Shown piece by piece: positions 8,810-63,805 of a DNA stretch of 64,000 nt. The position numbers and the translations under genes are program-made. Each line of letters starts with the position of its first letter. Positions within the stretch are counted from its first letter, which is position 1. The stretch comes from Blasia pusilla (lineage: Eukaryota): NCBI GenBank assembly GCA_050084515.1, contig CM114271.1:28024001-28088000 (forward strand), given 5' to 3'. The notes beneath the pieces were generated by a model that saw nothing but the letters and a program-made list of their open reading frames with translations, ran no database searches and was not told where the DNA came from.

Positions 8810-11800
8810 ATATCCATTCTCATATAGACTACTGTCTTGGACCTATGCCAAGACCCTTCATATTGTCGGTGAAGCTGATCTCCGCTCAAAGCTTTCGTGA
8901 AGATGTCTGCACGGTTATCCTCTATTGGACAATAGACTAACTTCAAAACCCCTCTCTCAATCAATTCACGAACAAAGTGATAGTGGATCTCTATGTGCTT
9001 CGTACGAGCATGAAACACATGATTATTTGCTATGGCAATGCAACTTTGATTGTCACACCACATTACAGTAGCATTTTCTGGTGCTTCTCCTATGTCCTCC
9101 AATATCCATCTCAACCACACTGCTTCACAAGAAGCATAACAAGCCGCCTTGTACTCTGCCTCGGTAGAAGAAATAGCCACTGTAGGTTGCTTCTTGCTGA
9201 CCCATGACACCACACCTGATCCTACCAAGAAGCAATAACTCGAAACTGATCTTCAAGAATATGAATCTCATGCCCAATCCGAGTCACAAAAACCTGTCAT
9301 TTCCGTCCCTGCTCCATAGGTGATGCCGTACTCGATAGTGCCTTTGATGTACTTTAATACACGCATCCCTGCCTTCCAATGTTTCTCACGAGGCTTAGTT
9401 GAGAACCTACTCAACACTCCCACAACGAAGCTAATGTCTGGTCTAGTGTTACACAAAAATATCAAACTGCGTACAAGCTTTCTGTACAACTTTTCATCTA
9501 CCAATGGTGAAACATCCTTCATCGAGAGTTTAAACTCTACCTCCATTGGCGAGACCAGTGCCTTACACTCGGTCATCCCAAATGCCTTCAAGATTTCTCT
9601 AGCATACTTCTACCGAGAGAGAAAAATAGAATCTGACTATTGCCTATAAAGTAGTGTAGAAGACCTAAATCTGACATTTCAAACTCAGATTTCAACACTC
9701 TCTTCATTTCCTCTATTTTCTTACAGTGGTCTCCTATGATGATAAGATCATCCACATACAGGACTATCAACATATACATCCCATCTTCGCAAAACACATA
9801 CAAATTTGCTTCTGACGGACTCTTGATGAGACCCTTCCCTCGAAAGAATGTATCTATTCATTGATACCATACCCTTGGGGCTTGCTTCAACCCATACAAT
9901 GCTCAATGAAGTAAAGAAACTTTCTCTTCTGATCCGGGTGTCTCAAAACCTGGTGGTTGAGAAACATATACCTCCTCCTTAAGATTCTCGTTCAGAAAGG
10001 TAGACTTCACATCGTATTGGTATACAGGCCAACGTCTTGTTCCTGCAACCGCTAGAACAATTTGAATGGTTGTCATCCTTGCAGTAGGAGCAAAAATCTC
10101 ATAGTAGTCAAAACCTTCGATTTGTGAGCATCCTTGTACAACCAACCTCGCTTTGAATTTATCAATGTACCGTCCGACTTGTACTTGGTCTTGTACACCC
10201 ACTTGGTGCGTATTATCTTCCTATCCTTTGGCTTTTTAACCAAAGTCCAAGTTTCATTTCTCTGAATAGCGTCCATCTCCATCTGCATGGCCTCTCTCCA
10301 TTGAGGATGGGCAAGGGCCTCATCCAAGCATGATGGCTCTTCCACCTTTAAGACCTCTTTCAACAAGGCCATGTTGACGAGATGTGGGGAAGCTCTATTC
10401 TGCTCCTCTAGTCTCTTGGATCTCCTTGGATGTGTAACAACTTCATCAGTTGCTAGTGGATCCTTACCATCCAAGAGCTGCTTTATCCACTTAGGGTATG
10501 ACGACCGTAGTGGAAGAGCAGGTTGCTCTTTGTAATCATCACCAAATTCTTCTTCTTGATGATCTTGTGTAAACATTGGTGGTGTGCTGTGGTGGGTTAT
10601 CTCTTCGTTTGATGATAATGTGGACGGACCACTGATATCCGCCACTTGACGAGGCTGTTCGTGGAACACCACATCACAACTCACAAGCATCTTCTTTTCC
10701 TCAGGACAACAAAGGCGATAAGCTTTAGACTCATCAATGTATCCCATAAAGATGCACTTCCTGCTCTTGGACTCCAGCTTGGTCCTAGATGCTTTAGGAA
10801 TATGTACAAAACACTCACTACCAAAAGTCCTGAAATGTTGGACTGATGGTACCTTACCTGAGTATGATTGATGAGGAGTCATGCCTTGCACTGACTTGGT
10901 AGCACTTCTATTTAGAATGTATACGGCAGTATTAACAACTTCAGCCCAAAATCCTTCTGTCAAACCTTTGGCTTTCATCATACATCTTGCCATCTCCACC
11001 ATTGTACGGTTTCAACGCTCAACAACTCCATTTTGTTGTGGTGTATGTGCCGTGGTTAACTGTTGCTTGATTCCATGCTCCCCCAAATATTTGTTGAATT
11101 CTGTTGATAAGAATTCTCCTCCTCGATCGGTGCGAAGCTTTTGTACCTTCTTTCCTGTCTCATTCTCAACCAGCTTGTGCCATACTTTTAATTTTCTAAA
11201 AGCACTTGCCTTATCACGAAGGAAATACACCCATATCTTCCTACTATAATAGTTGACAACTAAAAAGAAGTAAGAAGAACCACCTAATGCCACTGTTATC
11301 ATTTTACCACAGGGGTCAACATGTATCAACTCTAGAGGAGCCTTTACTCTATTGCTGGACTCTTGTGGAAATGGTTGTCGGTGTTGCTTGCCCATCATAC
11401 AAGCTTCACAAGTATCAGACACTCCAGAATTTATTGGTAAATCAGCAACCATGCCAGATTTCAGCATCTGACTTAGTAAGGGAAAGCTTAGGTGACCAAA
11501 TTTTTCATGCCACAACTTACTGCTACTCAGATCTGTACCTACACTTGTCGTGAAAGCATACAACTCGTAGATATTTTCACGTCGTATACCTTCACCCACT
11601 ACTTTCCCATTGGCATCCTCAATGATTGCTCCAGTTTTCTTGAAACGAACGTCTAGGTCACGATCGCATAATACTGCCACTGAAATCAAATTTCGCTTCA
11701 ACTCTGGTACGTACAATACATAAGTTAACTTCTTTTCATCTTCTTTTTGTGAGACTAAAGAAATTGTGCCTTTCCCTTCTACATGGCACTTTGCATTATT

Positions 11801-12825
11801 CCCAACAGTAACAACGATGGGCTCTTGCAGAGGTTGTAAGGAGCTATACCAATCCTTATGATTGGTCATATGCCTAGATGCTCCACTATCGAGCACCCAT
11901 GCATCTTCACTCTTTGACTTAGTGGAATGTTCTGCCTGTGTGCAAAACTCTTATATTGCTACCCAAGCATCTACTTCATGTTCTCCTAGTTCTACAGAAT
12001 TTCCAGACTCCTTCTTAGGTCTTAAACAACCGTTCTTCTCATCCTGACTCCTCTTTCTACAATCTTTGATAAGATGACCTAGCCACAATAAAAGCATTTG
12101 AAGTCTTTTCTTGGAAATTTCTTCTTGACATTTGAATTGTAATCCTGATTTCTACCTCTCTGCAGTAAATGCAGCATCACTTCCCTCTCTTGCTTTAAAG
12201 CGCATTTCCTCTTCTACCAACATTGCACTAAATTGATCAAAAGTAAGCGGCGTGGGTCTTACTTGAGTATTCAATGTAGTGACCAAACTGTCATACCTTA
12301 GAGGCAAAATCCTTATGCACTGACATGCCAAATCTTCGCTAGACTTTTAAATTCCTACGGACGCCATTTGATCTTGAAGATTCTTGATCCTTGTCAAAAT
12401 TTGCTCTACGCTTTCTCTTTCTGAAAATTTCTCAGACGTAAGCTGATTCTCCGGATTCTGAATCCGAGTCTCATTCCTCGTTTCATACTGATTCTTCGAA
12501 ATGTTCCACGCCTCAGTAGCAGTGGTTGTATGTTGAATGAGAGTCATGACAGAATCAGTTACATTCGTGACAATCGCATATAGAGCATCAGCGTTTCTAT
12601 GTCTCCATGCCAACAATACAACAGGATCGATATCCCCAGATGAAGACGAACATGCAGAACTCAAAGTAGCTTGTGGATTTGATCGACTTCTGTGGCCGTT
12701 TCCCAGACCTCAAATGATTCGAGGACAGTTCTCATTTTGAACTTCCACAACGTATAGTTAGACCCGTCTAACTTCCCTTCACCCAGCGGAGGATGGCGAG
12801 CACGAACTGACGAAGAAGTAGCCAT
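8810..12825 (-). pseudogene. copia gag-pol polyprotein, multiple frameshifts/stops
   Basis: KLDGSNYTLWKFKM (gag), WVLDSGAS (protease), LRTDRGGEF and TPQQNGVVER (integrase), KARLVVQG and LYVDD (RT), SSTEAEY and ADIFTKAL (RNase H). Confidence 0.95.
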
Positions 12826-14622: not shown

Positions 14623-15625
14623 TGTCATGTGCCTACTCTCCTTGAACGTCAATCTCTAGTATTGGGGAAGCGTACGTTCAGTAGGACACGCTCTCATCGC
14701 CGACATGCACCCAAACGCACCCACATTAGTCTGGCTTTGGGTCAAACGGTCTTCCAAACCACTGAGTCTTCTACTTGGCGTCTCATCAAGCTCAACTTTC
14801 CTTACTTCCTAGGTTCCCAACATGGCAAGTCCTTCAAGACTTGGAACATACTTTTTGGTTAGTCGAGGAACCTAAAACGGCACCTGCGCACCTAACGGTT
14901 CCAACTGTTCAACGGAAGTCGTGCGAGTTACTAACTGGGACCCAAGTAATTGAGTCACGGGTTGGAATCCAAGAGGGATCTCTAAAATCACCTCAATAGA
15001 CTTGGTTTAGGTTCTCAAGCCCCAACTCCAAACTCCCGATCCGTTCCATGCCCTTGAGCCGCCCCGCGGCGTCCAAAGTGGGGTTCGAGTCCCAAGCACC
15101 ATTGGAGACCTTTCCCCTTACTAGTACTTCTGGGGTCCTCCAATAACCTCTCCCCTTTAGAAAAGGATGGTCGGGCCCTTCATTGTGGCCCTCAACCCGA
15201 CTCTACTTACAGTCGTTTTTGGGTCGTTTCTCAGCCGCTACTTATGCGTTTGCAAAGATCTTATGTGCGTTTGGACCGAATTTCTATGAGCTTTCCAACC
15301 CACCCTTATTCGTCCCAAACGCATCTTGGCGCTAAAAGTTATGGCCATAAATACAGTCGGAAACTCTCAAACGCTAGTGGCGTCCCAAATTCGAATTCCT
15401 TCCTTTGGCGACCCACTTCCTAGACTTGACTCCTCTCAAGTCTTGATCCGCGTTTGGTCCAGGTTTCTCAGTCGCAACCACAACCTACGAAACGCAAACC
15501 CTTGCTTGCGTCTCATCTCTTGTCTCTTCTCCGAGACCACTCCAACGCGCAAACCATCTCAGCGTGAGCCTGCTAGTGTTCTGATGTTCCGCTTTGGCGC
15601 TCGTTTGGTCATGAGGGTCGTAACA
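14623..15625. mobile_element. Solo LTR, family A (1003 bp), inserted in the LINE RT domain
   Basis: TGTCA...TAACA termini; CCCTCT duplicated at 14617-14622 and 15626-15631; removal restores QGCPLSPILF. Confidence 0.88.
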
Positions 15626-18600
15626 CCCTCTCACCTATATTGTTTGGGCTCTACATTGATGAACTTGAAGAGGTGCTTTATGGAGTGAATGGAGATCCAC
15701 CAGAGCTAGCACACTGCCTCATCCCCCTGCTCTTGTTTGCAGATGATATAGTTCTGATGTCTAGAACAACATATGGGCTCCAACTTTACCTGAATGCACT
15801 TTCAAGCTTCTGCAACAAATCGGGTATGGAAGTCAACTTGCTGGAAATGAAGATAATCATCTTTGGATCACAACTCCCTACAGCGCAACGGTCACACACT
15901 TTCACCTTAAGCCAGGGACTAAGAAGGGAGATCAATGAGATTGTGGGTGTGTACATATACTTGGGGGTGCAACTCAAACCCAACAACCAATGGAGAGCCA
16001 ATGGGAGTTGCAACAACATCAATGCAGGCTTGAGGGGTCTACACCTGCTACAATCCAATTGCAGAAGAATGGAACTTTGGCATATTCCACAGAAACTCCA
16101 TCTCTTCAAAGCTCTGGTGATCCCAGCCACACTCTATGCATTTGAGGTGTGGGGCCCCAGCTCCAAGGCTTGGCCCCATGGCCTTGAGGCCCCCCAAAAA
16201 CTCTTCATGCGGCAGAGTCTGGGCATTAGGAAAACCACTCCCCACGACATTCTACTAGCTGAGTTTGGGGAGATACCAATGGAGATCCATGCTATTAAAA
16301 ATCTGATCATATTTCTCCAACACCTTGAAGATATTTGCGAGGACGATCCCAATCGTCTATCCACCAAGGCCCACGTGGTTTCAAAAAGTAGTGCCACCCT
16401 TGGGGCTAAAAATTGGTACTATGACTACACGGAGTGGTTGATGAAATGGGGAATATCCATCGGTGACCTGCCTACGGCCACCCACTCGGACCTTGCTAAA
16501 CAATTACATTGCCATCAATTGGGGCCGACACCAACGTCTCTTGGAAAGCAGGGGGAATTCCTCTCACAAAAATGGTGAAAGAATGAGGCGCTACCACACC
16601 CTCATGAACAACTGCAGATCCATGCAGCAAGCCTCTGATATCTCTGCCCCCATTCCCACTAAGTTAAGTCATACATTAGCGAGATTTAGATGTGGCTCTA
16701 CTGACCTAGAGATTGAGAAAGGAAAATTCTCACTGAAGAAAAGGGAGGACAGATTATGTAGATTTTGCAACTCGGGGCTTGTTGATGATGAACATCACTA
16801 CCTCTCCGATTGCACCTTTCACGATCACATTAGGCTTGACTTCCCGGATCTCTTTGTTCACTTGGCTCCTAGGGTCCTCCTCTTCATGGCTAGGCAAAAT
16901 CGGACGCATATTGCTAAATTCTTGCATAGTTGTGTGAAGACCAGGGACACTCACCTGGCTGTAAGGACTCCTTAGGCCCTCGCTGGTGCTTGCTCTCTCT
17001 CCAAAATTGTTATTAAGTCTCAATACTAAGTCCCATGGCCTTGTGGGGTCCCCGTGGACAATAAATCTATTCATTCATTCATTCTCTCTCTCTAGCATTG
17101 TCTAACCAAGGCGCGGCATCTATGGTCGCAAGGCTACAATAGGCACTACTTAATGAGTACACACACACACTCTCTCTCTCAACCATCTCTTTGCTGTACA
17201 ATATATAACAATAAAATGACACCATTATCTTAAGGAAATAAAGCATGCACATCACATATACCTATTTTACCAAAACACTCATTTTTTGGGTGACCACTCC
17301 TTGAAGTTCTTTCTCACTCCCTCTTCCTCCTTCCAAACCTTGTTATTCATTCGACTCTTCTCTTCCAAATCACGGTTCCACCAGTAAGCTAGATCTTCAC
17401 TTGCTTCCTCCTTACTTAGAAAATCCTTGATATAGTAACGAGTGCTCTCCTCTTCAATCCTCTTTAAATTTTCCTCTACCTTCTCAATCTTTTGTAACTC
17501 TATCTCCTCTTCGCGAGTTGCATATCGAACCCTAGGTTTTACAGACTTGTCTCTTTGAGTAGTATGTCTTGGTTCAACAGAGGCCATATACCGTCACCAC
17601 TTGTCAATCAATCCATAAACGACATTAACTCAAAAATTGGAAATTTATGCAGATACATTAAAAAATAAAGTCTAGAGCATCTCTACAAGAGCCTAACCAT
17701 CCTGGACATACTTGTCAGCAAAGATCAAACTCTCCAAATTAGTATCAACTTCTGTAGGCAGCTTTACCAATGATAAGCATTTAGCCATTGCTACTAGCCT
17801 TAAGCATATGTGAAGCACTTATATATCACAGAAAAGGGAGAGAAACATGGGCTTATTGAAAGCCTAGTGATAACAAAGAGTAAACTCTATCCAATGTTAG
17901 TCTCAGAAATTTAGCCTGCCATCCTCTCATCTTTCATCAAATCCACTTTTCTATCACCAGGAAGCAGAATTTCATGTACATTGAGTTCAAGACACTAGTC
18001 CCTTAATTTGTCAACAAACCAGCAGAGCCCGCCATCTTCAACCTAATCAATGGGATGAAGGAAAATTTATGGTGCTATTTTGGTTTCTTGAGGTTAAGGA
18101 ACTGGAGTTGAGATGACTCATGATCAATTGATTCTAATCAAAGGAAGATCTAGAGCATTTCTTACCAGAAATGTGAGCAATAGAACGAGAGTTCGGTTCG
18201 AACATGCTAGAAAACCTACTCAACTATGCATGGTTAGAGCCTTGAAGTGTTTAGTGAACGGAGTATAGAAGATCAGCACGCTGACTTTGGTGGGGGAGCT
18301 TAATCTTGAACAACACTACTGGGTCCAGTTCGGATGATGAGCATTGCCAACGTGAGCTGATTCCATCGCAAGCATGTGTTTCTTGATTGTCACTCCATCA
18401 AGAAATGAACCCAACTACTTGGAGATACTCCACACATATCTAGAATCGGAAATTGTGATTGCCTCAAGGGTAAAAATGACTAGAGTGCATTCTAAAATCA
18501 TCTATGAGCTTCACATTCATGACTTCCCCGAGACGGAGCAAAAGGTCATGGAAAGGAGCCACATCACAAAAATCTTGATCGTCTTGACGTTTCACAATAT

Positions 18601-20084: not shown

Positions 20085-20230
<146 letters not shown>

Positions 20231-20561: not shown

Positions 20562-20645
<84 letters not shown>
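20547..20645. repeat. (TG)n(GA)n microsatellite
   Basis: Compound dinucleotide tract about 30 bp left of the inner CACTA insertion site. Confidence 0.98.
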
Positions 20646-23409: not shown

Positions 23410-25308
23410 GATCAAGGATGGTCTTTCTATTAAACTTTTCAAGTGGGGAGGATATTCTATTGGACCGATCCTCATCAAAGTATTGGGAGATGTTGCGATC
23501 TATGGTTTTCCTTCAACCTGGTCGCTACGGGAGATTGCTCCTATTCACAAATCAAGAAGGAAGGATTTGGTGACGAACTATCGTACTATCATGGTGGGTA
23601 GTGTTTTTGCCAAGTTGTTTGGGAAATTGGTGGAGCCAAAATTGAGCGCATGGACAAAGTCTTTCCAAAAGAGAGCACGGGTCCAAGCTGGTTTTTGCCC
23701 AACATACAACATCATCTACCATATCTTGGCCTTGCGTATTTTATGGGAGAAATCTAAGGGCAATGGGAAAGCTTTGTTTTGCGATTTCATCGATTTCAAG
23801 AAAGCTTTTGATACTGTACCTCATAAGCTCTTATGGGAAAGGCTGCAAGCCATTGGAGTACCACCAAATCTCCTAGCAGCCGTGGCCATGTTATACCATT
23901 CCGTTCGGGCCAAGATCAAAGGTTCACAAACTCAAGAGATCTTGAGTACCATCGAAGTCATTCAAGGTTGCCCTTTCTCCCCTACTCTATTTGGATTTTT
24001 CATAGATGATATCTAAAAGTGTCGGAGGAATGTGATAGTGAAGGTGTCAAGCTAGGAGAATTTGTCATCAAAGCTCTATTGTATACATATGACATCATAT
24101 TACTAGCACGTGATGGCATTAGTTTACAAAAACACATCGACACTTTGGCAAGGTTTTCTACCCAGAATCAGATGGAGGTTAATATGGAGAAGTCTAAAGT
24201 CATTATAGTGGGTACTAGATCAAATTTTTCGTTCTTTTAGAAAGGTCTACAATTAGAACAAGTGAAGAGTTACAAATATATAGGCATTGATTTCTCTCAT
24301 GACTATAGTTGGGCACTTTCCGTGCAAAAGAGAACAGAAGCTGGTTACAAAGCTCTATATTCATTTTTAAATCGGTATAGAAGAGCTCATCTTGTGTCTT
24401 GGGTTCTTAGGAAGTTCTTATTAAGAAGCTTTGTGTTGCCGGTGCTCTTATTTGGGACCCTAGTTGTAAGAAGACAGGTTGGGAGCGTGTGGAGAGGGTG
24501 CAAAAGATCTATCTATAAGAAGAATTGGGTGTAAGAAACCAAACTCCTTATACTATTCTTCTTGCGGAAATAGGTTGTCTTCCTCCAGAGGCTAATGCTC
24601 TTTACTAGACCATCACTTATATTGTAGGGGTGAGATCTCTTGATGTTTCTCGCCTCCCTCATCAAGCTTTGCGAGCCACACGTTCTATAAGATGGATGGC
24701 AAATGTGGTGACTTGGTCTTCAAAGTGGAATGTGGCGGAATGCGATTGGGACTTGAAACTGATGGCACTCCACGAGCATCTACAGAAGAAATTTCTCAAT
24801 ATTATTTGGAGCAGCCCGGGCACAAAAATGGAGTTTTATCAACTTCATGTTAATCTCATGCTTATATATTGTGAACAAGGATACCTACTTGCGAGGATCT
24901 CCACGTTCTTACGTCACATTATTGCACGATATAGAACTGGGTCTCATAGGCTAGGAATTGAGGAAGGACGATGGTTTAATATTGATAGAAGTGAACAAAT
25001 TTGTTGGTTATGTGACGGATAAAATATTGAGGATGAAGAATAAGTGTTTGTTACATGTCCAAGGTATGAAGAGATTAGACTAGCTCATAAAATAGATGTG
25101 GATAATTTATATTCTTTACTACAACTAGTGCCTTATGATTTAGGTTTTTATATTAGGGACGTCATTATTCATGGCTCAAGTGCTCTAGGCAGTAGCTAGG
25201 AGAAGGTCTTTAGGATCTTTTTCTGGGTTAGTGAAAGAATGACTTGTAATGTGTTTTTCAGCCTTTTGACCCTTTGGGTCCCACGGGCTTGATCCATTTA
25301 CCATTTAC
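23410..25308 (+). mobile_element. 5'-truncated RTE-X-like LINE (family 2)
   Basis: TNYRTIMV, FIDFKKAFD, QGCPFSPTLF, IARYRTGSHRLGIEEGRW...ICWLC; 3' tail of CATTTAC repeats. Confidence 0.9.

Positions 25309-26706: not shown

Positions 26707-26789
<83 letters not shown>
26707..26789. repeat. (AG)n microsatellite
   Basis: ~80 bp AG tract. Confidence 0.98.
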
Positions 26790-26791
<2 letters not shown>

Positions 26792-28481
26792 ACACTATTA
26801 CCATCCCATTGTAGTTGTGGTTCATAAGGCCATGAACCATATCTTTGTGGCGGGGGCGTCGGGGAAAACCACCCACCTAATGTGGGATTCCATTGCATCC
26901 CACTAGATGTCCATGCCTCACTAGGATATGGTGGTGGCGGACCACCTCGTCTAATTCCCAAGGAATTGTCTTTGTTTGAATCCCTTTGTGCATTCCTACA
27001 TCGAGGTTGAAAAGGAGAACTTTCTCTACCATGGCCTCCTCTGTGCGTTTAGGGGGGTTATGCAAGAGACACAAGACAATGAAGTCATCAAGAAAATGAC
27101 ACGAATTAAACTATCGCCCAATCTGCCTTAACAATATTACCAAAATTGCGTAGACATTTCCATTGGAGAAAATAAAAGTGCAAAACCTACCCATGACTTT
27201 TGTAAGTGATCGTGATCAGAAGAATCTTCCTCTTGCCTATCATAATCATCCTCCTTGTCAAAAGACATCATGACAATCAGATTTTGTGCACGAGTCAACA
27301 TGCACTCTTTTGGGCTTACAACACTCTTGGAATCTCCCAATTTGCTTATCTCCTTTAAGCGAAGACTTCGCCTTGATGGTTTTTTTTCCCCTCTACAAGT
27401 ACAAAATGATGTCTCTTTCTCCTACTAGATGCTATGACATTTGACACACTTCAAAAAAAACCAACAATGTAAATATTTTGAGATTTCACATAATAAGAAA
27501 ATGGCACTAATATTCATCAGCTCTTGTACTAATTAACACTCTTATTCACACTTACTGTAGCAAACGATCAGTGCTACTGAAGATGGCTGCTTTGCGAGCC
27601 TTGATTGCCAAAATTCGTTGCTTTCGCATCCCTTCGTAAGGATTTGGTAACACTTTCTCCTCCTGGTCTTGTTCAGATTCACTCATGAAATCTAAGTTAT
27701 TTGGGACACCTAAGTCTGTTCCATCCATCACACAAAGCTTCACCTCTCTATGTAGGCTTAATGGCTTCTCTTGAGAACCTTGCTCAAGTAAAGTTTGGGA
27801 AGATGGGCTGAAACCTTGAAGCACATAATCACTTGGACCCACCCTATTAAGATCCCCCTCATCACTTGGATTCACCCTCTTAAGATCAACCTCATTTTTC
27901 TGCCATGTTATATCTTAGCAGCAAGTTTCCCCTGCAACCACTATCCTATCTATGTCCAATGGACAACATGGAAGAATGTCATTATGTCCCACTTTCTTCC
28001 CTGCTATATCTACATTGACATTATTTGAGCTAGAATCTAGAAGTTTCTCTTCAAATTGTTGCTTTGGCTCTTCTTCCACATGTGCACTCATAGGAAACAT
28101 ACTCCAATCATCATCAACCACATCATCATATATACCAATCCTATCCACATGTATCTCGCTAAAAGTGGATCTTTTTCTTCTCTTTAAGGACCACAACTGC
28201 CACTCTACACCATCTAATAACTCACCACTCGTCCCACATCTTCCTTCATTGGAGAGAAGTGCTTCTATATCAACTCGCCTCCCTTTTGGATTCCATGAGC
28301 ACATATCCACAATTTGCTCTGGAAAAAAATAGAGCAGCCCCAATCGTCAAGGTTGTCAAGAAAAAACCTAAATCAACCTTTAGAACTATGTACTCTTCAG
28401 TCCAATCTTTCATTTTCAAAATCATCACTTGATGAGGTATCTTCTATACAAACCTACATCGGAATTACATTTGCAAAATCC

Positions 28482-31400
28482 CTAGATGCTACTTCTTGTT
28501 TTTCGTTTGTCAATTCTATAGCTCCTAATGCATGTGTTTACTGTAGGAATCCTCTCTGACAAGCTGATCAGAGCACGCAAGCCAATATAATCTCCATCAT
28601 CCCCGTGATCCAGTTCACTATCCTTTGCAAACACTCGACGTGCGTGAGCTTCCTTGTGCAATACAACTTTCCACCCACTTCCCTCACTTGCATCGCCAAA
28701 AAAAACTTGCTCCACTTGAGATGGAAAAACAAAAGGCTGGTCTAAACTGGATAGGCAGGACTTTAGATTGGCTAGCAAGAAGCCCTAAGCATCTCTTCTC
28801 ATTGATTTTCTATGGGACTCCCAATCTGCCCTAACCTATCTGCCTCTCATCAACACTATTGGTTGATCGACCAACCCATAATCAAAAGCAAGAATGTATG
28901 TCAAGGTTCCAACATAAGAGTATGAAAAATTGGATGGACTCGTATTCTCATCCACAAAGTGAGCTCCTATGCCACAATCAAAAGTGGTAAATGAATCCCA
29001 TCCCGTCCCGTCCCGTCACCTCGCTCTACTCGGTAATGGTTTCCATTTGCTTTCATACTTTTGTATGAAATCACCTTCGCTTGAGGTGGAATGGACAAGG
29101 CAAATGCTAATGGATCAAGTTCTAATGGCTTCCCGTTAGCCCGAGTGATCATAGCTCAATGAATCCAATCTTCAAAGGGTAAGTTGGGTTTTTCCAAGTT
29201 GTACTTCATGCAGAAAAAAAACCCAATTTAAGTAAAGATATGAAGTAAGGATTTTTCATGGTGTTTACTCTTGATTGAGACAAACAACAACCAAAAAATT
29301 ACACACAACAACAATTTTGCAATCACTCACCTATGCCATACTTCCATTGATTTTGTATTATGTAGAATGTAGTGATGTATGAGGAGTAGCAACTCGCGTG
29401 AGAGAAGTATGGGTACTCTAGCCCCTTCCAACTCCTCTCCTATTACTCCATCTTCCTCACCTTCATCCCATATTCGCGCCCTAATAGCTTCAAACCTCTT
29501 CTTATACTCAGTGATAAATACCATGGCTTCATTTTTAACATATCCTTCTGACATGCAACCCTCTGATCTCGTTTTAAACCTGAAGTACTTTTTAATTTTG
29601 CCCATGTATCTCTCTATTGGGTATATCCAGCGACAAGCCACTGGCCCACAAATATCAAGTTCCTTTATTAAATGGACAAGTAAATGGGTCATTACGTCAA
29701 AGAAGGCAGGAGGAAAGTGCATCTCTAATAGACATAAAGTGATAATGGTATCCTCACGTAGTCTTTCAAGTTGGGAAGGACCATAGACTTTGACACATAT
29801 ACTTCTAAAGTTCTTGCTTAACCTCATTCTAGTCATCTGAACTTCCTTTTTCATGAGGCCACGCAGAGAGTAAGGTAGGATTTGATGAATCAACACATGG
29901 TAGTCCTGTGACTTCATATTTCCCATCTTCTTGTTAACCACATGCTTCCTCAACTCACCACAATATCCCGTGGGCACTTTCAATTCCTAAATTCTACCAA
30001 GAACTATCATCAACTCATAAGGAGATAGTAAATAGTCTGCAATAGGTTTCACAAGACCTTCTACTCTTCGCGGATGCGGCTGCAACCACAAATGAGGTCG
30101 AACGCTTCTTGCCTCCATATCTCTTATAACCTTGACTGTATCTTTAATTCCAAATATTGTCTTTACTAAGTTTTCAGCAATGTTCTTCTCCACATGCATG
30201 ACATCCAATGTATGGCGAATGAGAAGATGCTGATTTTTTATCAAGAAATCTCGTCAAAGACAAATTTGGAACCAAAAAAAATCTTGATAATAAGACTTTT
30301 GGTAAAGGGAAACTTAAGTTGCTAGGATACTTGCCAATAAGGGAAATTTAAGAGCAAACTCCTCCTTTTGACTCCTATTTTTTTGTGTGGATCTCAAGGA
30401 CCATCTTCTCGTCCCCCGCTCTCGTCATATTCCAGTTTCTCCGCAGCCCAGGCCAAAATCTCCTCACTTGTAACTCTTTCTAGTGGTGTCCTTATTTCCC
30501 CTCTACCCTTAAAATGGATTCCATATTTCCTACCTCTGTAAGGATGAGTACAAGGCAAGTATCGTCGATGACCTCCAAAGATGGGTTATCCACATTCCTT
30601 TGAGAAATCTGATTCTACCCGAGGCGCGCATGTGGTATACGTAAGCTTCCCACCATGGCTTTGCCATGAGATTTTAACTAATGCAGGATATTCATTGATA
30701 TTCCAAAGAATCATCGGCTTAAAAGTAAACTCCCCGTGCCCACAAGGTCTTCAAACATCTTGGAGCACTACTCCCTTCCACAACTCCTCAAATTCCTCCA
30801 CTAATGGGGCAAGATAAGTTTTGATGTCACCAACATTTATACTCTCCTTACCAAGTATAAGGAGTGCAAGCATAACAATGATTTTTTTGCTTGCAACCAA
30901 GGAGGCAAGTTATAATTTACCAATAATACTGGCCATGTTGACCGGGAACTGGATTTATCTGAGAATGGATTCACCCCATCAAGAGCTAGCGTATAGCCCA
31001 AATCTACAATTTCTCATTTCTTGACTAAACTCTGGGTAAGTTTGATCTACATGATCCCCTGCTTTGCTATCACTTGCATATCTAACCATCCCATCTTTAC
31101 TGTTGTTACTTGCTTTCCAGACAAACAATTCAGACAATGTCAAACATCTGAACATTCGTCGCATCCTTGGGATGATGGAAAAATGGCGAAGAACTTTGCA
31201 GGGTACTAATGACTTTCCAACTTGCTTAAACCAACATTTTTTGCACTTTGGGCAGATTGTTGAATCTTTGAGATCCCCACCAAACAACACACATCCCATG
31301 GGACATGCATGATATGAATCATAACTCAATCCCAGCTTTCCTATAAGCTTCTTGGCTGCGTAGTAACTAGGAGGAACATGGTTGTCTAGTAGAAGAACGA

Positions 31401-32080
31401 GTTTACCAAGCAGCTTCAAGATCTCATCAAGAGCGATGTTTGGCAAGTTATGGGTAGCAGTAACATTTAAAAGCAACATCACAAAAGCTAAGATGGATAT
31501 CTTTGCCCTTGGAAAAAGTGGCTTGCATGCTTGTGCAAGCTCCGGAAATTGATCATCATCAATTCCAATGTCTACATTATTTCTTGTATCCATCGGATCA
31601 TTCCCACTATCTTCAACCCCTAGCTCATGATCCTCATCATCATGGAGGTGATTGTATTGCATAAACACATCACTCAACATTTGTTGAACATCAATATCAC
31701 CATCCAAGTGTTGCCTCTTGGATGTGTCATTTGGTAAATTAGGGTCAAGATCACAATGGGCTTCATGTATGATTTTTTCAGTTTGGTCCTTGAAGGACTC
31801 TTGATCTTGAATTGACCACTCCTCGTCAGAGGAATCCCACTTGTGTCTACTCTTTGGGATGCAAAAAAGATGAAAGCATTCAAACTGTTTTAGATGCTCT
31901 TCTATTCTATGAAGAGATAGATAAGTCCCCCTTTGCACTGATTACAAGGGCATCTCACTCTCTTAATCCCAAATTTGCGGGCCAGAACCTACTCTCTTTG
32001 CCATAATTTGAAATCGTGTGCTAAGACTCGATGTGGATGACCAAAAGGCAATCGATCTTGGGAGGTCATTGGTGGTTTCA
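28482..32080 (-). pseudogene. CACTA TnpD-like transposase (Transposase_21, DUF4218 and DUF4216-like regions), with introns and disablements
   Basis: YHACPMGCVLF, VLRHFSIIPRMRRMF, LDVMHVEKNI, MKSQDYHVL, FPPAFFDVMTHLLVHL, WIYPIERYM, DQPFVFPSQVEQVFF. Confidence 0.95.
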
Positions 32081-33139
32081 TGATAATATCTATTTTGGAT
32101 ATCCAATACAAATAATAACAAGACAATAGACTCCAATCAAACATAATATGTATCGAGGTTTCCCATCCATACAACTTTCCTAAAATTCATGTATGCATAA
32201 ACATACTATTGCAGATGTGAGAAAATCACAATTGAAGAGAGGGACAATGCGAAGGGTTTGTCAAGTACTTGTAATATAGTGATTTCACCAATATCCTTTT
32301 GACCAACTATTTTAACTCCTCCGTACATGTCACCCATTAAGTAGACTCCATTAGCTAGATGGTTCACACCATACACTAGTAATGTATGAAACCAAATACA
32401 TTTAACCACTATATAATTTTTTCCAAGCCAAGGTATAGTAATAGTGGGCCCATAAGGTTGTGGGCTGAGTAGGATATGGATTATGTGAGGGTAGATATTA
32501 AGCATCCTTGTAAAAAATGATCTTATATGATTTCTTATAAGGACACAATAGGTCATCATCGTAACCACTTGGGAGCGGCAGGGGATGGACAATATGAATT
32601 TAGCTATTGCCATTTGTTTGGGGGCAAAGTTAAGAGATTCAAGATCCTAGAATTCTAAGGATTTCATTTGGAATGGAGGCATTGTGGAGTCAATAACCTA
32701 GTAAGGTGCCCTACCAAGAATATTGTATTCATTCATCATCTGTTGCCATCTCCAATTATGAAACTATACCTTACAAGCTAGGTAGCCCATCACCACCTGC
32801 AGACAAACAGATCCTAATCAAGAGAAAATTCACAAAAAAATTTAGCAACCACCATAATGATTATTTTGTGCTCCAAAAAATTGTGAATGGACAAATTTCA
32901 AAATTGACTTGATATAAAGATTGAGTTTTGCAATTGTGGCGGTTGATTCAACGGATATGAGTATCATTTTCAAAATCAGAGGATAGGAAACGGTGAGTCT
33001 CTGTATGAAGTCATACCACCTACCTAGTATTCAAAGAAGCTCAACCCTCTTTGTATCTAAAGTTGTTACCTGAAAAACTCCACCAAAACGCCACGAGATT
33101 TTGTTCGGACACGGTGAATCTCATCTCACCACCTGAAAA

Positions 33140-33799
33140 TCAAATCCATGAAATATGGTCTCTCAAAGGAGTCTGAAGCGTGGGATCAACTTTGTGGTTG
33201 TGGCAATAAAACCACCACCTATCCTCGCCACATGCACCATGGTCATAAATAATCCTATCACATGCATAACCCTTGCTCATTGCTTTGTTCAAGCAAGTCC
33301 AGTACGTGCCATGCAATAGGACACCTAGGACAATACACCATATCCTCCCATAAATCCTCATCATGCTTATGGCATCCTCGGCAATAAAGCATGGGGCATG
33401 CCTCCATTTTCGGAGGCAAACAAGTAAAACAAAAAATCTTACACGATACGTATCTGGGCACTGTCTCACACGAAGCCCCGATTCCTCACTTTCTGCAAAA
33501 GTTCCTTGTATACCACAATTGGCACACTTGGCCGTCTTCTTCACATAATCCGGGCAAAACCACCTCCCTTCATGGTTAGGTGAAAGATCTACCCCAGGAC
33601 AAGCATTTTCAATAGCCCGGACAGATTTTGCAGTTGCGTGGAAATATCTAGCACAAGGCCCGTCGCAAACAATCAACTCCTCCCCATCCTCACAGATTGC
33701 ACAAATGTGGGCTGCCTTCTAGTGAATTCGGAGTGCAATGTATGGCGCTAAAAAGATCACCTTGGGGGCTTTCTTGGCCTGGAGCTTCGAGCGCGCCAT
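33140..33799 (-). pseudogene. EDM2-like multi-PHD-finger protein with H3-tail-like N-terminus; one premature stop and two compensating frameshifts
   Basis: ATG at 33799 gives MARSKLQAKKAPKVIFLAPYIALRIH*KAAHICAICEDGEELIVCDGPCARYFHAT...WFCPD...CANC...C/SCKIFCFTC...CPMLYCRGC...CPRCPIAWH/WTC...FYCHNHKVDPTLQTPLRDHISWI; Cys/His spacing and the terminal YCxxHxxDxxLxTPxRDH match the EDM2 PHD region as recalled. Confidence 0.85.
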
Positions 33800-35613
33800 C
33801 CTTGGACTTTCGTCAAAGTTGTATGTATACAAACTAGAACAAAAGTCAATTGTAGTAGTGTAAGACAAAGCTCATAGAAGAAAGAGGTGAGGGAAAGATT
33901 ACATCACTAGTAATGAATTGTGTGTGAATAATAGTATATTTCAAAGAGGAAAAATCACAATGTCTAGTGTATATATTTGCTTACTAATGATACGGCAAAG
34001 CACCCCTAAGTGTCGGACTCGTATGAATGACCAAGTCCTAATACGTAGTCTATGACAATATCACCAAGAAAAAATCATGACAAACACCCAAAATTAGTTA
34101 TTGTGCACACACAATTTACATCATCGTCCTATTTATTGATTTTATCTTCATGTCACATGTATATGGGGGCAGACTACTTAAATTCTTATTTGTGGTATAA
34201 CCTTGAAATGTCTCATGTTTTTCGGATTTTTTGCCATTTCAATTCTATAGTTTACATCAGGCTTGTCTATTTAAGGGTGTGGAACCCCTCCACAAAGTGC
34301 CTTATGCTCACAATTGCGAGATCCTTATATTAGGTGCATTTCAAGTGTTTGAGAGGTGTGCAATGTAGTGCCTTAAAAATATGAACACCGTAATCATAAC
34401 AACACCTTAATTTGAGTATCCATTCATCATGCATTTCAATGTCATTCCCATACTTGTCCATATTATATTAACATCACATATGTTTCGAGTTCATAATCAT
34501 AGTGTCCAATTTATGAGTCTGTATGGACTAGTATTGTTTTGAGTTAGTCTACAAAAATACTCTAGGAAAAATTTAGGAGGAAGAAAGTCCATAAAATCAC
34601 CATCTCTTGAAGGTGAAACCACTAGGCCTCGCACTAGGCTCATCAGGAAATGCAAGGGCCCTATCCTGTGGTGGCATGCACAATCATCACTACAGCATGG
34701 GCAGAATGTGTGATCACGCAGAATGTTGCCATCACACAATGTGTGCCCGGTTAGGCATGGTGTGCCAGGCCTCGTGTCAATGATAGTACTATAGAAGGAA
34801 CTCAATTGAGGAAAACAGTTATCCATGGAGAAAAACATATTACCCTCAATGCATATCCTACAAATGGCTCCGATCATGGACAACTCTCTTGAGTTGCACA
34901 GACGAGGCTTCGAATGGAAGCGCCCGTCATTAGAAGAGTGAATCCCAAAGCCTACATCGTGGCAAATGTGAAGTACCACATTGTTGACGAGACCCAGCTG
35001 AATGTAACATCTGATAGACTCAGCCTCCCATCATACTCAACCCACATCAACCATCTCAAAGAAAAGTAACACGTACGAGGCTTGCTAACTTCAGAGACAC
35101 AAAATACTCCTACGTCATGATCGTGCACAATAGCCCTGCTGTAGACGATGTCCTCCATGATGTTTGAAGGGAGTGCTGCAATGTGGTGTATGATAGTTAC
35201 GTGACCTTGCTAAATAAGAAGAGAAGATTACGAAACGATAAAGTACTACATTGCTTTCAAATGTAGACGTACCAAGAAAAATCCTATGTGCATTGTCCCT
35301 CTGTCTCGTCTCTGTCCACTCCTCTTCCCTGACGTCTCATACAACACCTCCACTTGTTAAATCTTGCACAAACGTATGATGGCTCTAAAAAAATGAGAGT
35401 GTCTCTCTTCTCAAGCCGCGTCCAAGTAGGACAGCATGTAAAAGGAAAAAAAGGAAGAAGATGGAAGTGAAGACTCAAGGACATACCCAATCAAAACACT
35501 CAAGAGCCGTAGGCGGCCTTGGTGCAGAAGGTTGAAGGAGATGAGGTGAGAAGGAAGACACGAGTAAGAGATAACAAACAAGATCCCAATTCTAAACAAG
35601 TGACATGCCTGTC

Positions 35614-35787
<174 letters not shown>

Positions 35788-36210: not shown

Positions 36211-37186
36211 CTGCACATATGCAAAGAATGCGAGGAGGTCCTGGCAAACGTAGTGAGTACTAGTGGAGTGTGGCAAAGCACAGAAATCGACGATGCAGGC
36301 AATACCTTCATATTAGAGATGATAGTGCATAACCTACTCCATTTGATCAAGGTGCCATACCTATCCTGGTGGCTCGAATTGAAGATTTACGCAAGAATAT
36401 GGTCAGAATTGGGACGGGACGGTTCATGACCACCCTTGAGGAAGGCTTGGTGACCATTTTAGTTTGTTTCACTTACATACTGGATGATCAGGACATAGTC
36501 GCCTTGGCAAGGCAGTACCATCTGGGAATATATTTCAAAACTCTACTGCAAAAATCCAACCTCGATGAAGTGCAGCACCAGTCAGCCATTTCTCTAGAAA
36601 ATCTATCCACCTTTTCACCTCTGTGTCGGCCAACACTACCCGTAGCCTCACAAAAGAAGCTATTTTGTAGTTTATTTAGTTGCATTAATCCTCCTCCCAG
36701 CCCCAATGGGATCTGCCTAGTCCACTCAATGGGATGCTCTGCCATAGAAACGTTATGCTTTCTGGAGGCTGAGGCCATTGTCCCCTTAGTGTTGCGCCTG
36801 GACCACCAGAATGTGATGGTTGTTGAAGCGGCTTTAGGTGCTTTGTCGACTATTCTCCATGACAACATCAATCTAGTGAAGGGAGTAACAGTTCTTCATA
36901 CAGCTGATGCCATCCGACCCATTCTTGAAATCTTACAGGAGCATCGCACAGAAATGTTGCAACATAAGGCAATCTAGAGGGTAGAAAGGATCTGCTCAAT
37001 GCGGATCTCACCCATCTAATAATTGAAAATCCTCACGTTCACATCGCAATGGTGGACGCATTGCGACATGGCAACACCGTTTGTTGGTCTTCGGCAGAGA
37101 AGAGTCTGAAGCACCTCAACAAGATCCCCAATTTCTCTGGCGTGTTCCAAAAGGTGGACACACCTGCGAAACGGCCACCTGGTTAA
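36210..37186 (+). pseudogene. Captured C-terminal part of a SAUL1/PUB43/PUB44-like U-box ARM-repeat gene
   Basis: VHNLLHLI, EGLVTIL, SAISLENLS, GICLVH, LDHQNVMVVEAALGALST, AEKSLKHLNKIPNFSGVF; premature stop at 36975-36977 and frameshifts. Confidence 0.88.
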
Positions 37187-43081: not shown

Positions 43082-44867
43082 TAAAATGATCTTGCAAAGT
43101 AATTGCATACCACAACAAATATGTCATTTGTGATTGGAAAAATAAAAATAAAAATAAAACTAACTGTCTTGTGTTAAAAAGACAAGATAAACAAGATTTT
43201 TTTGAATATACTTATTAAAATAAACGAAATATGTTAAAATCTCACATTGAAAAATAAACAAGACTAATGTTGGATAATCTATATTATTATTGGAGAGTGT
43301 CTTCTTGATTTGCAAACACCTCTATGCTTTGTATGTGGCAACTGGGCAACAAGAAAATGTTTCAATAAGAAAATTTAGATTTGTGTGCCGTATCATTAGT
43401 CCCTTCATGGGCTATACACTAGCAAAAACTGTTCAAACCCTTTTTTGTTTCCGTAGGCGCAAGCACCTTACTAGTTTACATTACCCGTCGTTGGGCCGGT
43501 GACTAATTGAACCCAAAAACAACCCCATACAATACACCTCCAAGTGTTAAAATTGGATAGGCTGAAAAGGCCATGTGTCAAAAGAGAGATGTTTTAAATT
43601 CCATAAGACACCCTCCCGTGATAATATGGAAGATTTGGAACAGGGGAAGAAGGATAAGATCGTGGGCTTATATTCCATCGGAAAGGAACGTTGTGATGCG
43701 GAAAGTGAAACGGACAGGGGCTTCGCAATGCGGGAAACAAAGTCGCTGGTTCGCCCAGCAAAGACGCACCCCCTTTCACTTTATCCTGACAATCCACGGG
43801 ACGGCGTGAAACGATGGAAGCCTGTCTTATCTGTCCCGTCGGCGTCCACCCTCTAACCAACCAATGCAAAACGGACGGATGCGGACGCACCGACCGGCCC
43901 GTCCATCCATCCATCCAGCAACGGTATATGGCATGGACATGCGTGATAGATCCAGCGCATATCACGCCATGGGTGGCTGCATGCATGACCATTAGTGTTG
44001 CTGTGGAAGGGCATGTTCCATCACATCATCCATCCATCGATGGCACGTCTCTCTCTCTCTCTGGCTCTGCCGCACGTTGTCTAGGTCTTCTGCAGTGCCC
44101 CTCACATGTTTCTCTCTTTCGCATGCACCGCTCTCTTTGTTCCTCCTTCTTCTGCTTCCGCTGCGCGATTCAGCTCGTCGAGTCTGGGCTGGTCTGTTGC
44201 GTTCTGGACTCTGGTCCGCCCTGCTCGCTCTGCAGCGAGGGTTCGTTCGGCCTCGCATCAGGTCCTCATAATCATCGATCGCCTGCCGCCGCTCTTTGAT
44301 CTTTCTCGATCGAGGTGCACGAGGCGGTTTGAGGTCGTTTGGCGCACTCTTACACAGGGGTCAGCATTAGAACACGTTTAGAATTACCTTCCATCGACCC
44401 TGCTGGGGTTGAAGAGAGTGAGAGTGAGAGAGAGAGAGAGAGAGGTTGAGCGAAGTCGAGAGGTCTAGGGCGTGTCGGTTAGGGCGTGAGCGGAGTCGAG
44501 GTTGATTTGGAAAGACACAGGAGCGGTGAGCAGCGGAAGGCTGTCTTCGCCCTTCGCCCGGGGGCTCCATTGAGTTTCGCGGCCAAGTGTCGTTGAAACT
44601 GGCGGATAGTGTGGGTGGAAGACGAGGAAGTGGCCATCTAGGTACTGATACTTCGAGGCCGTGAATTAGGATAAAGTGGGGCAGGTTAGAACAGGACAAG
44701 TGTTGTGTTGATCGTGTCGAGGATTAAGCCGGACGGAAGGAAGCCAAATTTGACTTGAAGGGGTGAGGGGACGTTCAGACGAGGAGAAAGCGAAGAACAC
44801 TTGGGAGGGTTATTTGTGTTCGCTGCCACCAGGCCTGGAGAAGAGGTAGAGAACCTCAGTCGTGAAA

Positions 44868-46259
44868 ATGCAGTCTATCGTAGGTCAAGGCGGGTTTGGA
44901 GAGAAGAGTGGGAAGAGTGGTCTGGGGAACAGCAGCAGGAAGAAGAGGAAGGGAGGGAGGAGAACATCGCATGCGCGTCCTTTCTGCGGAGACACGGGCA
45001 TGTCGGAGGGGGGAAATCGGGAGGGAAGCGTGCAAATGTGCTGGGATGAAAAGGGTGTGGACGTAGTGGGCGTCGACGAGGAAGAGGAGGAGTTGGAAAG
45101 CTGCAGCGTGAGTCCAGCCTCCGTCTCGCAGAGGGAGACAATGAGTTCCTCCTTGTGGAGCACTCTGCCCGATCACTTGCTTGATAGCATTCTTGCGCGT
45201 TTACCCATACAAACGTTCTTTCGTTGCCGCTTGGTGTGTAAAAGTTGGAACACACACATGTTCACGCGTAGCTTTTTGGAAGCCTATGCGGATATTCCTT
45301 CGCAAGGGCCTTGGTTTTTCTTCTTTACTCACGATGAGAGGAACCACGTATCTACTTACGATTCGGCATTGAACAAGTGGCACCGGATCCCGCTCTCTCC
45401 ACCCCACAGTAACACTAACCCTTTCTCAGCGGCAGATGGTGGTCTGGTTTGCTACTTTTCCTACGAGAATGGATCTAAGAGCGTTGTGGTTTGCAATCCT
45501 TTGACAAAGTCATGTCGCAGATTGCCTCCTTTGCTGAAAACTCCTTCCAAGGTTACTATGTTAGCCATGGCCTTTGACAGAGTCGCCAAAACCTACAAAG
45601 TGGTGGTAGCCGGGGTCGCGAAGTTCGATCATGGTAGGTTCTTGAATACAGCAGAAGTCTATGATTCACAGACACAGTGCTGGACGACAACCGGAAACAT
45701 TCCTGCTACCCACACACTCAAAGGGAAACCCATATTTTCTCAAGGATTTCTGTACGTGCGGAGTCAAGCGCAGCGGAGTTACCTGTTGGCTTACAACATG
45801 GATCAAGGGTCGTGGAGTGATTTGCAGGCTCCTTTACCGTCTACGGTTAGGCACGGAGAGCTGTTGGAGTGGCAAGGGCGAATCATGATGGTTGGAGAGT
45901 TGGAAGAGGATCACAAGATCCAGAGCATATGTATTTGGGAGCTTCAAACCGCAAGCTTGAAGTGGAAAGAGGTTGACCGATTGCCGGCTGGACTCTTCGA
46001 GGGCTTCTTTGGAGATAAGGACTATTTCCAATGTAACGAGCGGGACGATGTGATATTGGATTGGTGCCAGGCAGGTCGCTTCGTGCTGCTATTTACCTAC
46101 AACCTCTATGATATGAGAGGGCGATGCAAGCTACTCGTCTACGATCTCTCGAGGAAGTCGTGGCAGAAGTTGCAAAGCTTCTCAAGAACAGACGTTTGTG
46201 GGACAGGGCGCATCATCAGGGGAATTTTCCACGAACCCAGATTGGATGCGACGGCATAG
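44868..46259 (+). CDS. F-box protein with Kelch-like beta-propeller (LCR/FBX6-HWS-UFO-like group), intronless CDS
   Basis: Uninterrupted 463-aa frame from ATG 44868 (downstream ATGs are alternative starts); F-box LWSTLPDHLLDSILARLP...CRLVCKSWN; GGLVC, VVCNPLTK, AEVYDS, WKEVDRLP, C-terminal EPRLDA. Confidence 0.93.
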   Translation: MQSIVGQGGFGEKSGKSGLGNSSRKKRKGGRRTSHARPFCGDTGMSEGGNREGSVQMCWDEKGVDVVGVDEEEEELESCSVSPASVSQRETMSSSLWSTLPDHLLDSILARLPIQTFFRCRLVCKSWNTHMFTRSFLEAYADIPSQGPWFFFFTHDERNHVSTYDSALNKWHRIPLSPPHSNTNPFSAADGGLVCYFSYENGSKSVVVCNPLTKSCRRLPPLLKTPSKVTMLAMAFDRVAKTYKVVVAGVAKFDHGRFLNTAEVYDSQTQCWTTTGNIPATHTLKGKPIFSQGFLYVRSQAQRSYLLAYNMDQGSWSDLQAPLPSTVRHGELLEWQGRIMMVGELEEDHKIQSICIWELQTASLKWKEVDRLPAGLFEGFFGDKDYFQCNERDDVILDWCQAGRFVLLFTYNLYDMRGRCKLLVYDLSRKSWQKLQSFSRTDVCGTGRIIRGIFHEPRLDATA

Positions 46260-62484: not shown

Positions 62485-62617
<133 letters not shown>

Positions 62618-63805
62618 ACGAGTGATTTTGGATCAATTGCCGTTTCGTATGGTCCTGAGACATCTTAGAGCCGAAACCTCGTACGTATGTCTTGGACTTT
62701 TCATTCAATAAAATACTCGCTTTTGAGTCAAGTTAGAACGTCATGAGATATTAGAATCCAAGATCCAACCTCTTTACCAAGAAGATTTATCTTACCGGGA
62801 AAATTTACTCCCACTATGGAGGGCCAAGTGCTTCTCAAGTTTCGAGGTCATCCTAGGAGATAAGTACTAGCCTATGGGACCTTAGACTCCCACACTCCTT
62901 TCTGAAATTTTAAAAAATAATAAAATTTATAATTATCTTGTTTTTTTACTTTTTTATTTCTTCTTTTTACTACTTCATTTTTTCTTTATTTTCTTATAAT
63001 GTCTACTTTGGTTTCTATTTTTATTTAAATATAAGTGATAAAATTTTCTTTGGTTGCAACAAACACTTATTAATTATACAGAGTGATCCTAGGGTTAGTC
63101 ATGTCAAGTCTCTCGTCGACATGTAAGGGGCCTATAATTGTGAAAACAATTGTAGCAAATGGAAGCCCTGAATATTTGATAGAGAGACTTGAGGAGCATA
63201 GATTTTGTTTGTCTTGCTTTCAACGAAAATGAAAACTACTTCATTTACATCCTAACTTCTCCACTCGTACCTCTAATGTTTCATTGACTTTGAGGAGGCT
63301 AGGGAAGTTCAGAAAGGCCATGATATTGTAGGTACACTCATAGTGATGAGAGATACTCTATAGATATATGCTTTCGTCTTAAAGAACATGACGATGCAAA
63401 ATATTCTTCCACTTCTCTCTATTATTTAGAGGGATGGTATGTAGGTGATCGGAGGTCGTAAAAGTATCTAGCGATGGCTATGCTCCAATACATGTGTTTG
63501 ATGTTGAGGTAGAAAATCAGTACGTGATAGTATCGATCGAGGATATAAGGCAATAGCTCGATGAGAGTGTATCTAGAGTTGTATCAACTCCGTTAGTAGG
63601 ACATATTTATCCATGTATTAACATTGAGCCATCCCAAGGTGAGGAGGATGAAGGAGATACATGTTAAACTAATATTATATTCCTTCTTATGAGCGTATAT
63701 CTTCTAGCTGCTCATTTGTACAAGATGCCTTAGGTTTTGGGTCGAGGGCTCTAAGGAGTGGTCGTACTAATAACTCAAATGACTCAAATTAAATGATTAT
63801 TGCTG

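Follow-up and report, generated by a model that had tools for sequence, protein, structure and literature searches.

The window, by which we mean the whole stretch of 64,000 nucleotides of Blasia pusilla DNA analysed here, carries on its minus strand the decayed remains of a PHD gene whose ancestral first codons encode a short look-alike of the histone H3 tail. Positions 33799-33140 represent a gene that once comprised about 220 codons in a single exon and is dead in this copy. Its product is a small NSD-type protein that consists of several PHD fingers, stands alone and begins with a basic tail, which is short and predicted to be disordered. For the gene family the finding is a promising lead, and at this particular locus it is inert. 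The features on which this statement is based are compiled in Table 1.

Table 1 Features of the PHD gene copy and its surroundings, in window coordinates
Feature	Position	Strand	Basis or remark
ATG, ancestral start of the small PHD gene	33797..33799	-	Alignment with Met1 of P0021 (tblastn)
Codons 2-10, ARSKLQAKK, H3-like motif [AS]-R-x-K-x-x-A-[KR]-[KR]	33770..33796	-	
Tail-coding region, 26 codons	33722..33799	-	Ungapped with P0022; disordered in the model of the relative P0021
TAG nonsense codon at Q of the Q-K-A-A-H motif	33719..33721	-	Alignments with relatives
Broken NSD-type multi-PHD module	33140..33718	-	Ends at the normal stop of the family (...RDHISWI, then stop)
TAT (Tyr85), CPDC changed to CPDY	33545..33547	-	Cys (C93, invariant) in 15 of 15 relatives
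CGT (Arg119), FCVRFF changed to YRVRFF	33443..33445	-	Cys in most relatives
Frameshift 1 (frame A to frame B), run of six T	33431..33436	-	Seven T needed for an intact frame
Frameshift 2 (frame B back to frame A), four extra bases	33302..33305	-	Comparison with most other copies
String TTTTGTTCTAG, putative leader-intron acceptor	33834..33844	-	Sequence
TNP2-type (CACTA superfamily) transposase remnant	29327..31941	-	At least two frameshifts
Multi-copy repeat unit holding PHD gene and transposase	27000..35500	.	Contig coverage

Gene model and start codon

The ATG at 33799-33797 opens MARSKLQAKKAPK on the minus strand, lies in the same frame as the PHD open reading frame and is embedded in the context CCAAGGATGGCG, with A at position -3 and G at +4. 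The listed PHD open reading frame begins only at 33676, the ATG being located 41 codons upstream of that point, and upstream of the ATG the minus strand holds no further in-frame ATG before a stop. Read from the ATG, the frame runs through MARSKLQAKKAPKVIFLAPYIALRIH, is then interrupted by the TAG and continues with KAAHICAICEDGEELIVCDGPC. All of these coordinates had been given correctly in the original prediction, which had also assigned the start codon a good context.

The relative P0021 aligns from Met1 at precisely this ATG. In tblastn comparisons, this protein of 226 residues matches window positions 33799-33143 from Met1 to Leu226 (E 1.3e-53), and P0022 aligns without gaps from its residue 13 through the tail and into the fingers (E 9e-51). 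The called starts of P0021, P0022 and P0009 read M-A-R, that of P0007 reads M-T-R. The glutamine that is replaced by the stop codon in the window, Q35, was flagged as nearly invariant (at least 90%) among 15 relatives and is present in 14 of the 15, with methionine in P0011. Since P0021 aligns from end to end and the Q at the position of the TAG is conserved, the tail counts as coding and the TAG as a later, secondary lesion. Going by these alignments, translation of the PHD gene ancestrally began at this ATG. The earlier proposal that the gene begins here and that a single TAG hides its start has held up. A GT...AG segment of 42 nt (33760-33719) was considered as an intron that would remove the TAG and was rejected, as P0022 aligns gaplessly across it. 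A length of 42 nt is below that usual for plant introns.

Lesions of the window copy

Judged from its sequence, the copy in the window is dead. With one stop codon, two frameshifts and two lost cysteines it gives rise to no functional product, and because the copy is dead, the locus itself is without consequence. A start-to-stop open reading frame is absent at the locus, interrupted as it is by the TAG and both frameshifts (Table 1), and the full set of zinc-binding Cys/His residues is not kept. The frame-B open reading frame at 33258-33461 carries the next finger and matches PHDvar_NSD (PF23004) with an E value of 0.0011, a match that falls short of the cut-off.

Contigs of three DNA sequencing runs (X1, X2 and X3) and of one possible RNA run (X4) from the same organism were placed on window positions 27000-35500 at 80% likeness, and other copies with frame-keeping states were found for both frameshift sites. 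At the first site, some other copies have an extra base at 33430 (three contigs in X1, two in X2 and one in X3). At the second, two plus two bases are absent at 33302 and 33305 (depth 35.3/38.4 in X1 and 25.5/31.5 in X2). At position 33646, most of the covering depth in other copies reads the family-consensus His. Base 33755, which is part of the tail-coding region, is missing in the possible-RNA contig of X4 and in one contig of X2. The copy behind the X4 contig may thus also be out of frame at this point.

The X4 contig just mentioned, classified as RNA by guess only, can be aligned with 33259-33817, differing at 67 positions and requiring 10 gaps. Its next 120 nt, beyond 33817, do not resemble the window, whereas DNA contigs extend across this position. 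The break weakly suggests that a leader is spliced on 18 nt ahead of the ATG and not at the acceptor that had been proposed. The string on which that proposal was built is indeed present 34 nt before the ATG (Table 1). The loose 5' end of the contig has no match within the window, and no leader exon was therefore placed. In the sequencing-run search, no RNA runs carrying the locus were listed.

A rare family of stand-alone PHD proteins

By homology, the gene is a member of a rare, unnamed family of stand-alone NSD-type multi-PHD proteins of about 220 residues. Pfam gave no match for the 178-residue open reading frame of the window at E values up to 0.1, and word-indexed protein searches with the 118-residue read-through translation returned no match, either among proteins of near length or among longer ones. 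When 1.84 billion representatives were scanned in full with HMMER, only 14 proteins were retrieved at E <=0.001, eight of which are small (131-257 residues; P0002, P0003, P0005, P0006, P0007, P0008, P0009 and P0011). P0019-P0023 were added later by profile search, and P0016 and P0017 by cluster look-up. The relatives, which exhibit 33-50% identity with the read-through translation of the window, all reside on single Logan or JGI contigs of 1-5.7 kb. Where the sources provide labels, these read 'hypothetical protein', apart from a misplaced ribosomal-protein label for P0007. A scan of metagenome contigs for relatives recovered only one weak, unrelated PHD locus (L001), and the ESM Atlas yielded only generic NSD-like PHD clusters.

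The view that the PHD module is akin to readers of the histone H3 tail, which was part of the original prediction, is borne out by sequence homology and by predicted fold. In the relatives, Pfam detects PF23011 (PHD-1st_NSD) and PF23004 (PHDvar_NSD) near or below the curated cut-offs, the best score being that of P0002 on PF23011 (27.7 bits; the cut-off is 27). The family profile matches NSD2 at 655-798 (E 6.6e-10) and also NSD3. With PHD1-PHD3 of NSD1/2/3 (PF23011, PF22908, PF23004; PDB 29hg, 7cro, 7crp) the homology extends over about 145 residues, whereas the family protein, with its approximately 220 residues, stands alone and is devoid of SET, PWWP or any other domain. The family may also resemble plant EDM2. 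A match of the profile with AIRE PHD1 (1xwh/2ke1; E 3.7e-5) comprises the common sequence C-A-x-C-x-D-G-G-E-L-I-x-C-D-G, and the family carries the first-finger signature of that domain, C-A-x-C-x-[DE]-G-G-[DE]-L-I-x-C-D-G. AlphaFold2 modelled P0021 with a mean pLDDT of 64 (70-90 in the core and below 50 for residues 1-47). When this model was submitted to Foldseek, the PZP domains of JADE1/BRPF1 and the PHD5-C5HCH domains of NSD proteins were returned as weak matches (E 4.5e-4 to 1e-2). Several of the matched domains have been solved with H3 peptides, and the fold of these H3-tail readers (8ge0, 6u04, 4gnf) is like that of the family model. In comparison with AIRE PHD1 and the PZP and PHD5-C5HCH domains, the matches are weak, with TM-scores of 0.19-0.27 by query length, and H3 binding by the family is putative.

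Association with a TNP2-type transposase

An old element of the CACTA superfamily likely owned the PHD gene, be it as a passenger or as an accessory gene. We infer this from the same-strand adjacency of the gene to the remnant of a TNP2-type transposase and from the multi-copy nature of the whole stretch. The gene is located about 1.2 kb upstream of the remnant, and both are similarly decayed. The remnant is recognized by DUF4218 (E 2.6e-34) and by pieces of Transposase_21 (E 4e-14 and 8e-6). Profile positions 1-36, 33-74 and 68-111 of Transposase_21 fall into three overlapping open reading frames in different frames, from which it follows that the remnant contains at least two frameshifts. 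On positions 27000-35500, 569 contigs were placed for X1, 227 for X2, 136 for X3 and nine for X4. Among those of X1, 430 of the 569 were less than 95% alike, and all 30 bins (30/30) were covered. These are too many distinct contigs for a single-copy locus, and the stretch is thus a diverged multi-copy repeat.

It is unlikely that the PHD gene does not belong to the transposon and instead derives from the host, as a pseudogene, or from another repeat, and merely lies beside the TNP2 remnant. Such an origin would agree with the observation that no TIRs or target-site duplication delimit an element: the best CACTA...TAGTG end pairs in the window agree at 17-19 of 30 positions (with five positions fixed beforehand by the pattern), none of them has a target-site duplication, and no long inverted repeats were found in the window. 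It would also agree with the presence of a second TNP2 element without a PHD gene in the window, with the location of the relatives on single short contigs, which could represent ordinary host transcripts, and with the outcome of our literature search, which found no paper on a PHD-encoding CACTA element and a gene-capture review containing neither 'PHD' nor 'histone'. However, many diverged contigs from all three DNA runs cover the PHD stretch, the spacer, the transposase and a further 1.7 kb upstream, and an unrelated origin of the gene would have to account for this as well as for the matching strand, the short distance and the similar decay of the two genes. Among the placed contigs, none links the PHD gene to the transposase in another copy. 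As to the assignment to a CACTA family, the TNP2 transposase and the multi-copy nature speak in its favor, while CACTA termini were not found.

The second TNP2-type transposase of the window is located at 3227-4995 on the minus strand (Transposase_21 E 4.1e-47 on the open reading frame 4318-4995). Its DNA is 67-72% alike that of the element at 29.3-31.9 kb, and no PHD gene is found nearby. Further mobile elements are represented by pieces of a Ty1/copia-type polyprotein at 10073-11950 on the minus strand (integrase core, GAG-pre-integrase, Pol beta-barrel, retroviral SH3-like domain and the start of RVT_2) and by RVT_1 reverse-transcriptase fragments on the plus strand at 15577-16578 (E 5.5e-8) and 23411-24016 (E 1.9e-14). 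Long (GA)n/(TC)n microsatellites occur at 20085-20227, 20562-20645, 26707-26790, 35616-35784 and 62488-62621, and those at 26.7 kb and 35.6 kb flank the multi-copy stretch in direct orientation. An open reading frame just outside the repeat (36333-36977, plus strand) gives one Armadillo repeat match (E 5.3e-5) and may be a host gene fragment. At 44850-46259 on the plus strand, where the GC content of the window is highest (0.53), an open 469-codon F-box/Kelch (KIB1-4 beta-propeller) reading frame probably represents a genuine host gene.

Conservation of the tail motif

In the relatives, the tail preceding Q-K-A-A-H comprises 24-38 residues, counted from the conserved Met, and apart from one motif is barely alignable. 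Motif counts were performed over 15 non-identical tails, including that of the window. P0006 and P0016 have identical tails, and P0006 was therefore left out. Expectations were derived from 5000 composition-preserving shuffles, and the patterns were picked after the tails had been seen. The pattern [AST]-R-x-K is present in 12 of the 15 tails (shuffle mean 1.18), R-x-K-x-x-A-[KR] in seven (shuffle mean 0.07) and [AS]-R-x-K-x-x-A-[KR]-[KR] in six, namely those of the window, P0021, P0009, P0008, P0019 and P0020 (shuffle mean 0.002). None of the 5000 shuffles reached any of the three observed counts, which, as the sequences are related, demonstrate retention by descent and not independent origin. 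In two MAFFT runs, R3 was invariant and K5 nearly invariant; this was not the case in a third run with another row order.

The tails were grouped by eye and without a tree. The group of the window consists of nine tails (window, P0021, P0022, P0009, P0003, P0007, P0002, P0023 and P0005). M-A-R is found in seven of them, in four at the called protein start, and the called open reading frame begins further upstream in P0003, P0002, P0005 and P0023. A start of the form M-[AT]-R-x-K is present in the window, P0021, P0009 and P0007, and in P0003 it follows seven extra called residues. P0002 and P0023 have lost the motif, P0022 has an altered form of it, and in P0005 its position is near-internal. 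In the other group (P0016, P0017, P0008, P0011, P0019 and P0020), the motif is situated 6-19 residues inside the called protein. The tails of P0019 and P0020 read S-R-x-K-x-V-A-R-R-[ST], with Arg at the equivalent of H3 K9, where the subgroup of the window has Lys.

With regard to the positions equivalent to K4 and K9 of H3, on whose conservation the original prediction had staked its case, A-R-x-K...A-K-K is kept in part of the family, but a free Ala1 is not a family-wide trait. The additional 'KAP' that had been compared with K14-A15-P16 of H3 is confined to the tail of the window and looks like chance.

Basic signal, histone mimicry or chance resemblance

Proteins that imitate the N-terminus of H3 are known from humans. 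In Chen et al. 2021 (PMC8166343), H3 N-terminal mimicry proteins (H3TMs) are defined by the start M-Z-R-X-K, with Z standing for a residue that allows Met to be removed (A, G, S, C, T, P or V). The same study reports that 48 of 20,996 human proteins (about 0.2%) belong to this class, which is enriched in chromatin proteins, that seven tested H3TM peptides bound H3K4me3 effector domains and some of them NuRD, and that PHD and Tudor readers bound in vitro (PMC8166343). The window and four relatives are like H3TMs such as VRK1, PCLAF and BCL11B in that M-small-R-x-K stands at the predicted start of a chromatin-type protein. They differ from them in that the tail is joined to a PHD reader in one small protein, in a plant and in a transposon-like setting, in that some family members carry the motif internally, and in that any binding or methylation of the tail is putative.

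In our preferred reading, to which we give even odds, the conserved tail motif is a basic signal for recognition or import, and its likeness to H3 is incidental. In intact relatives, [AST]-R-x-K-x-x-A-[KR]-[KR] would then serve in nuclear import, in contacting acidic chromatin or nucleic acid, or in both, would act equally well at the terminus or internally, and would resemble residues 1-9 of H3 as a by-product of basic chemistry. As the motif is internal in at least six of the 15 relatives, a free N-terminus is not needed for the conserved function, and Lys/Arg-rich stretches located just before a PHD finger in NSD2 and NSD3 align with the family tail. The same two observations count against true H3 N-terminal mimicry by intact members of the subgroup of the window, which we consider somewhat unlikely. 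In that case, Met would be removed and the exposed A1-R2-x-K4...A7-K8-K9 would be read or modified like the H3 tail, and the protein would either gate its own PHD module in an autoinhibitory manner or compete with H3 for readers and writers as an anti-silencing factor. Mimicry has in its favor that the start in the window conforms in sequence to M-Z-R-X-K in every respect (Chen et al. 2021, PMC8166343), with Ala following Met and with R2 and K4 after Met removal, that starts of this kind recur within the subgroup, that six of the 15 tails agree with the H3 pattern at each constrained position (A1, R2, K4, A7, R8 and K9), and that the module joined to the tail shares homology with readers of the H3 tail (AIRE PHD1, PZP and NSD PHD5-C5HCH). 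In addition, the small residue before R and the Ala at +5, which coincide with A1 and A7 of the H3 tail, are not required by a plain Lys/Arg import signal, and the frequency of M-A-R in the subgroup, together with M-T-R in P0007, fits with selection for an exposed A-R start. On the other hand, the motif is lost or altered in three members of the subgroup itself, the AlphaFold2 model of P0021 shows the tail disordered and undocked on the PHD module, and the locus in the window is dead. When the tail of P0021 (residues 1-35) was submitted to complex prediction with the PHD module (residues 36-226) and zinc, the score was 0.01, which speaks neither for nor against docking. Furthermore, the family has A-A-H-V before the first Cys where AIRE has N-E-D-E. 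In AIRE, this acidic stretch helps to contact H3K4.

We regard it as very unlikely that the likeness is due to chance and without function, arising from a drifting disordered leader that combines the common plant Met-Ala start with richness in Lys and Arg. The match is short, KAP is restricted to the window, three of the 15 tails are without [AST]-R-x-K and the patterns were picked post hoc, all of which would be expected of a chance resemblance. Yet [AST]-R-x-K recurs in 12 tails, the remainder of which is nearly unalignable, R-x-K-x-x-A-[KR] by far exceeds its expected count, and R3 and K5 stood out in two of the MAFFT runs. Derivation of the tail from an H3 gene was also considered and rejected; agreement is limited to the first four to five residues.

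The original prediction of a histone-mimic tail fused to a histone reader is thus upheld in part, with respect to the gene model, the motif and the kinship with readers, but not with respect to a free Ala1 or docking of the tail. Likewise, the peptide A1-R2-S3-K4 that was expected after Met removal is compatible with the start in the window, but the internal position of the motif in at least six of the 15 relatives argues against it as a general feature. That intact members of the family combine a transposon-carried look-alike of the H3 tail with an H3-tail reader, such that the tail gates its own PHD module or diverts H3K4/K9 writers and readers from the element, is distinctly unlikely in our estimation.

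Relation to known viral and transposon-encoded factors

The influenza H3N2 NS1 histone mimic 'ARSK' has the same four letters as the tail in the window. In NS1, these residues form the C-terminal end, so that a free Ala1 is not imitated, and the protein is a viral and not a transposon protein. VANC of VANDAL elements is said, with reference to work by Fu et al. in 2013, to be a transposon-encoded anti-silencing accessory protein. The family described here would share with VANC an accessory, chromatin-directed gene beside the transposase, but there is no homology and the transposon superfamily is a different one. An anti-silencing role of the family, suggested by this analogy, is pure conjecture.

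Implications

Transposon silencing works through histone H3 marks. If the reading of the tail as a mimic were true, an element that brings along a reader of the H3 tail, and perhaps a decoy for it as well, would represent a new counter-silencing strategy in plants, and a plant DNA transposon would encode a histone-mimic anti-silencing device. Even on the cautious reading, small NSD-type PHD proteins that stand alone emerge as a family that is rare, had no annotation and has a conserved tail motif.
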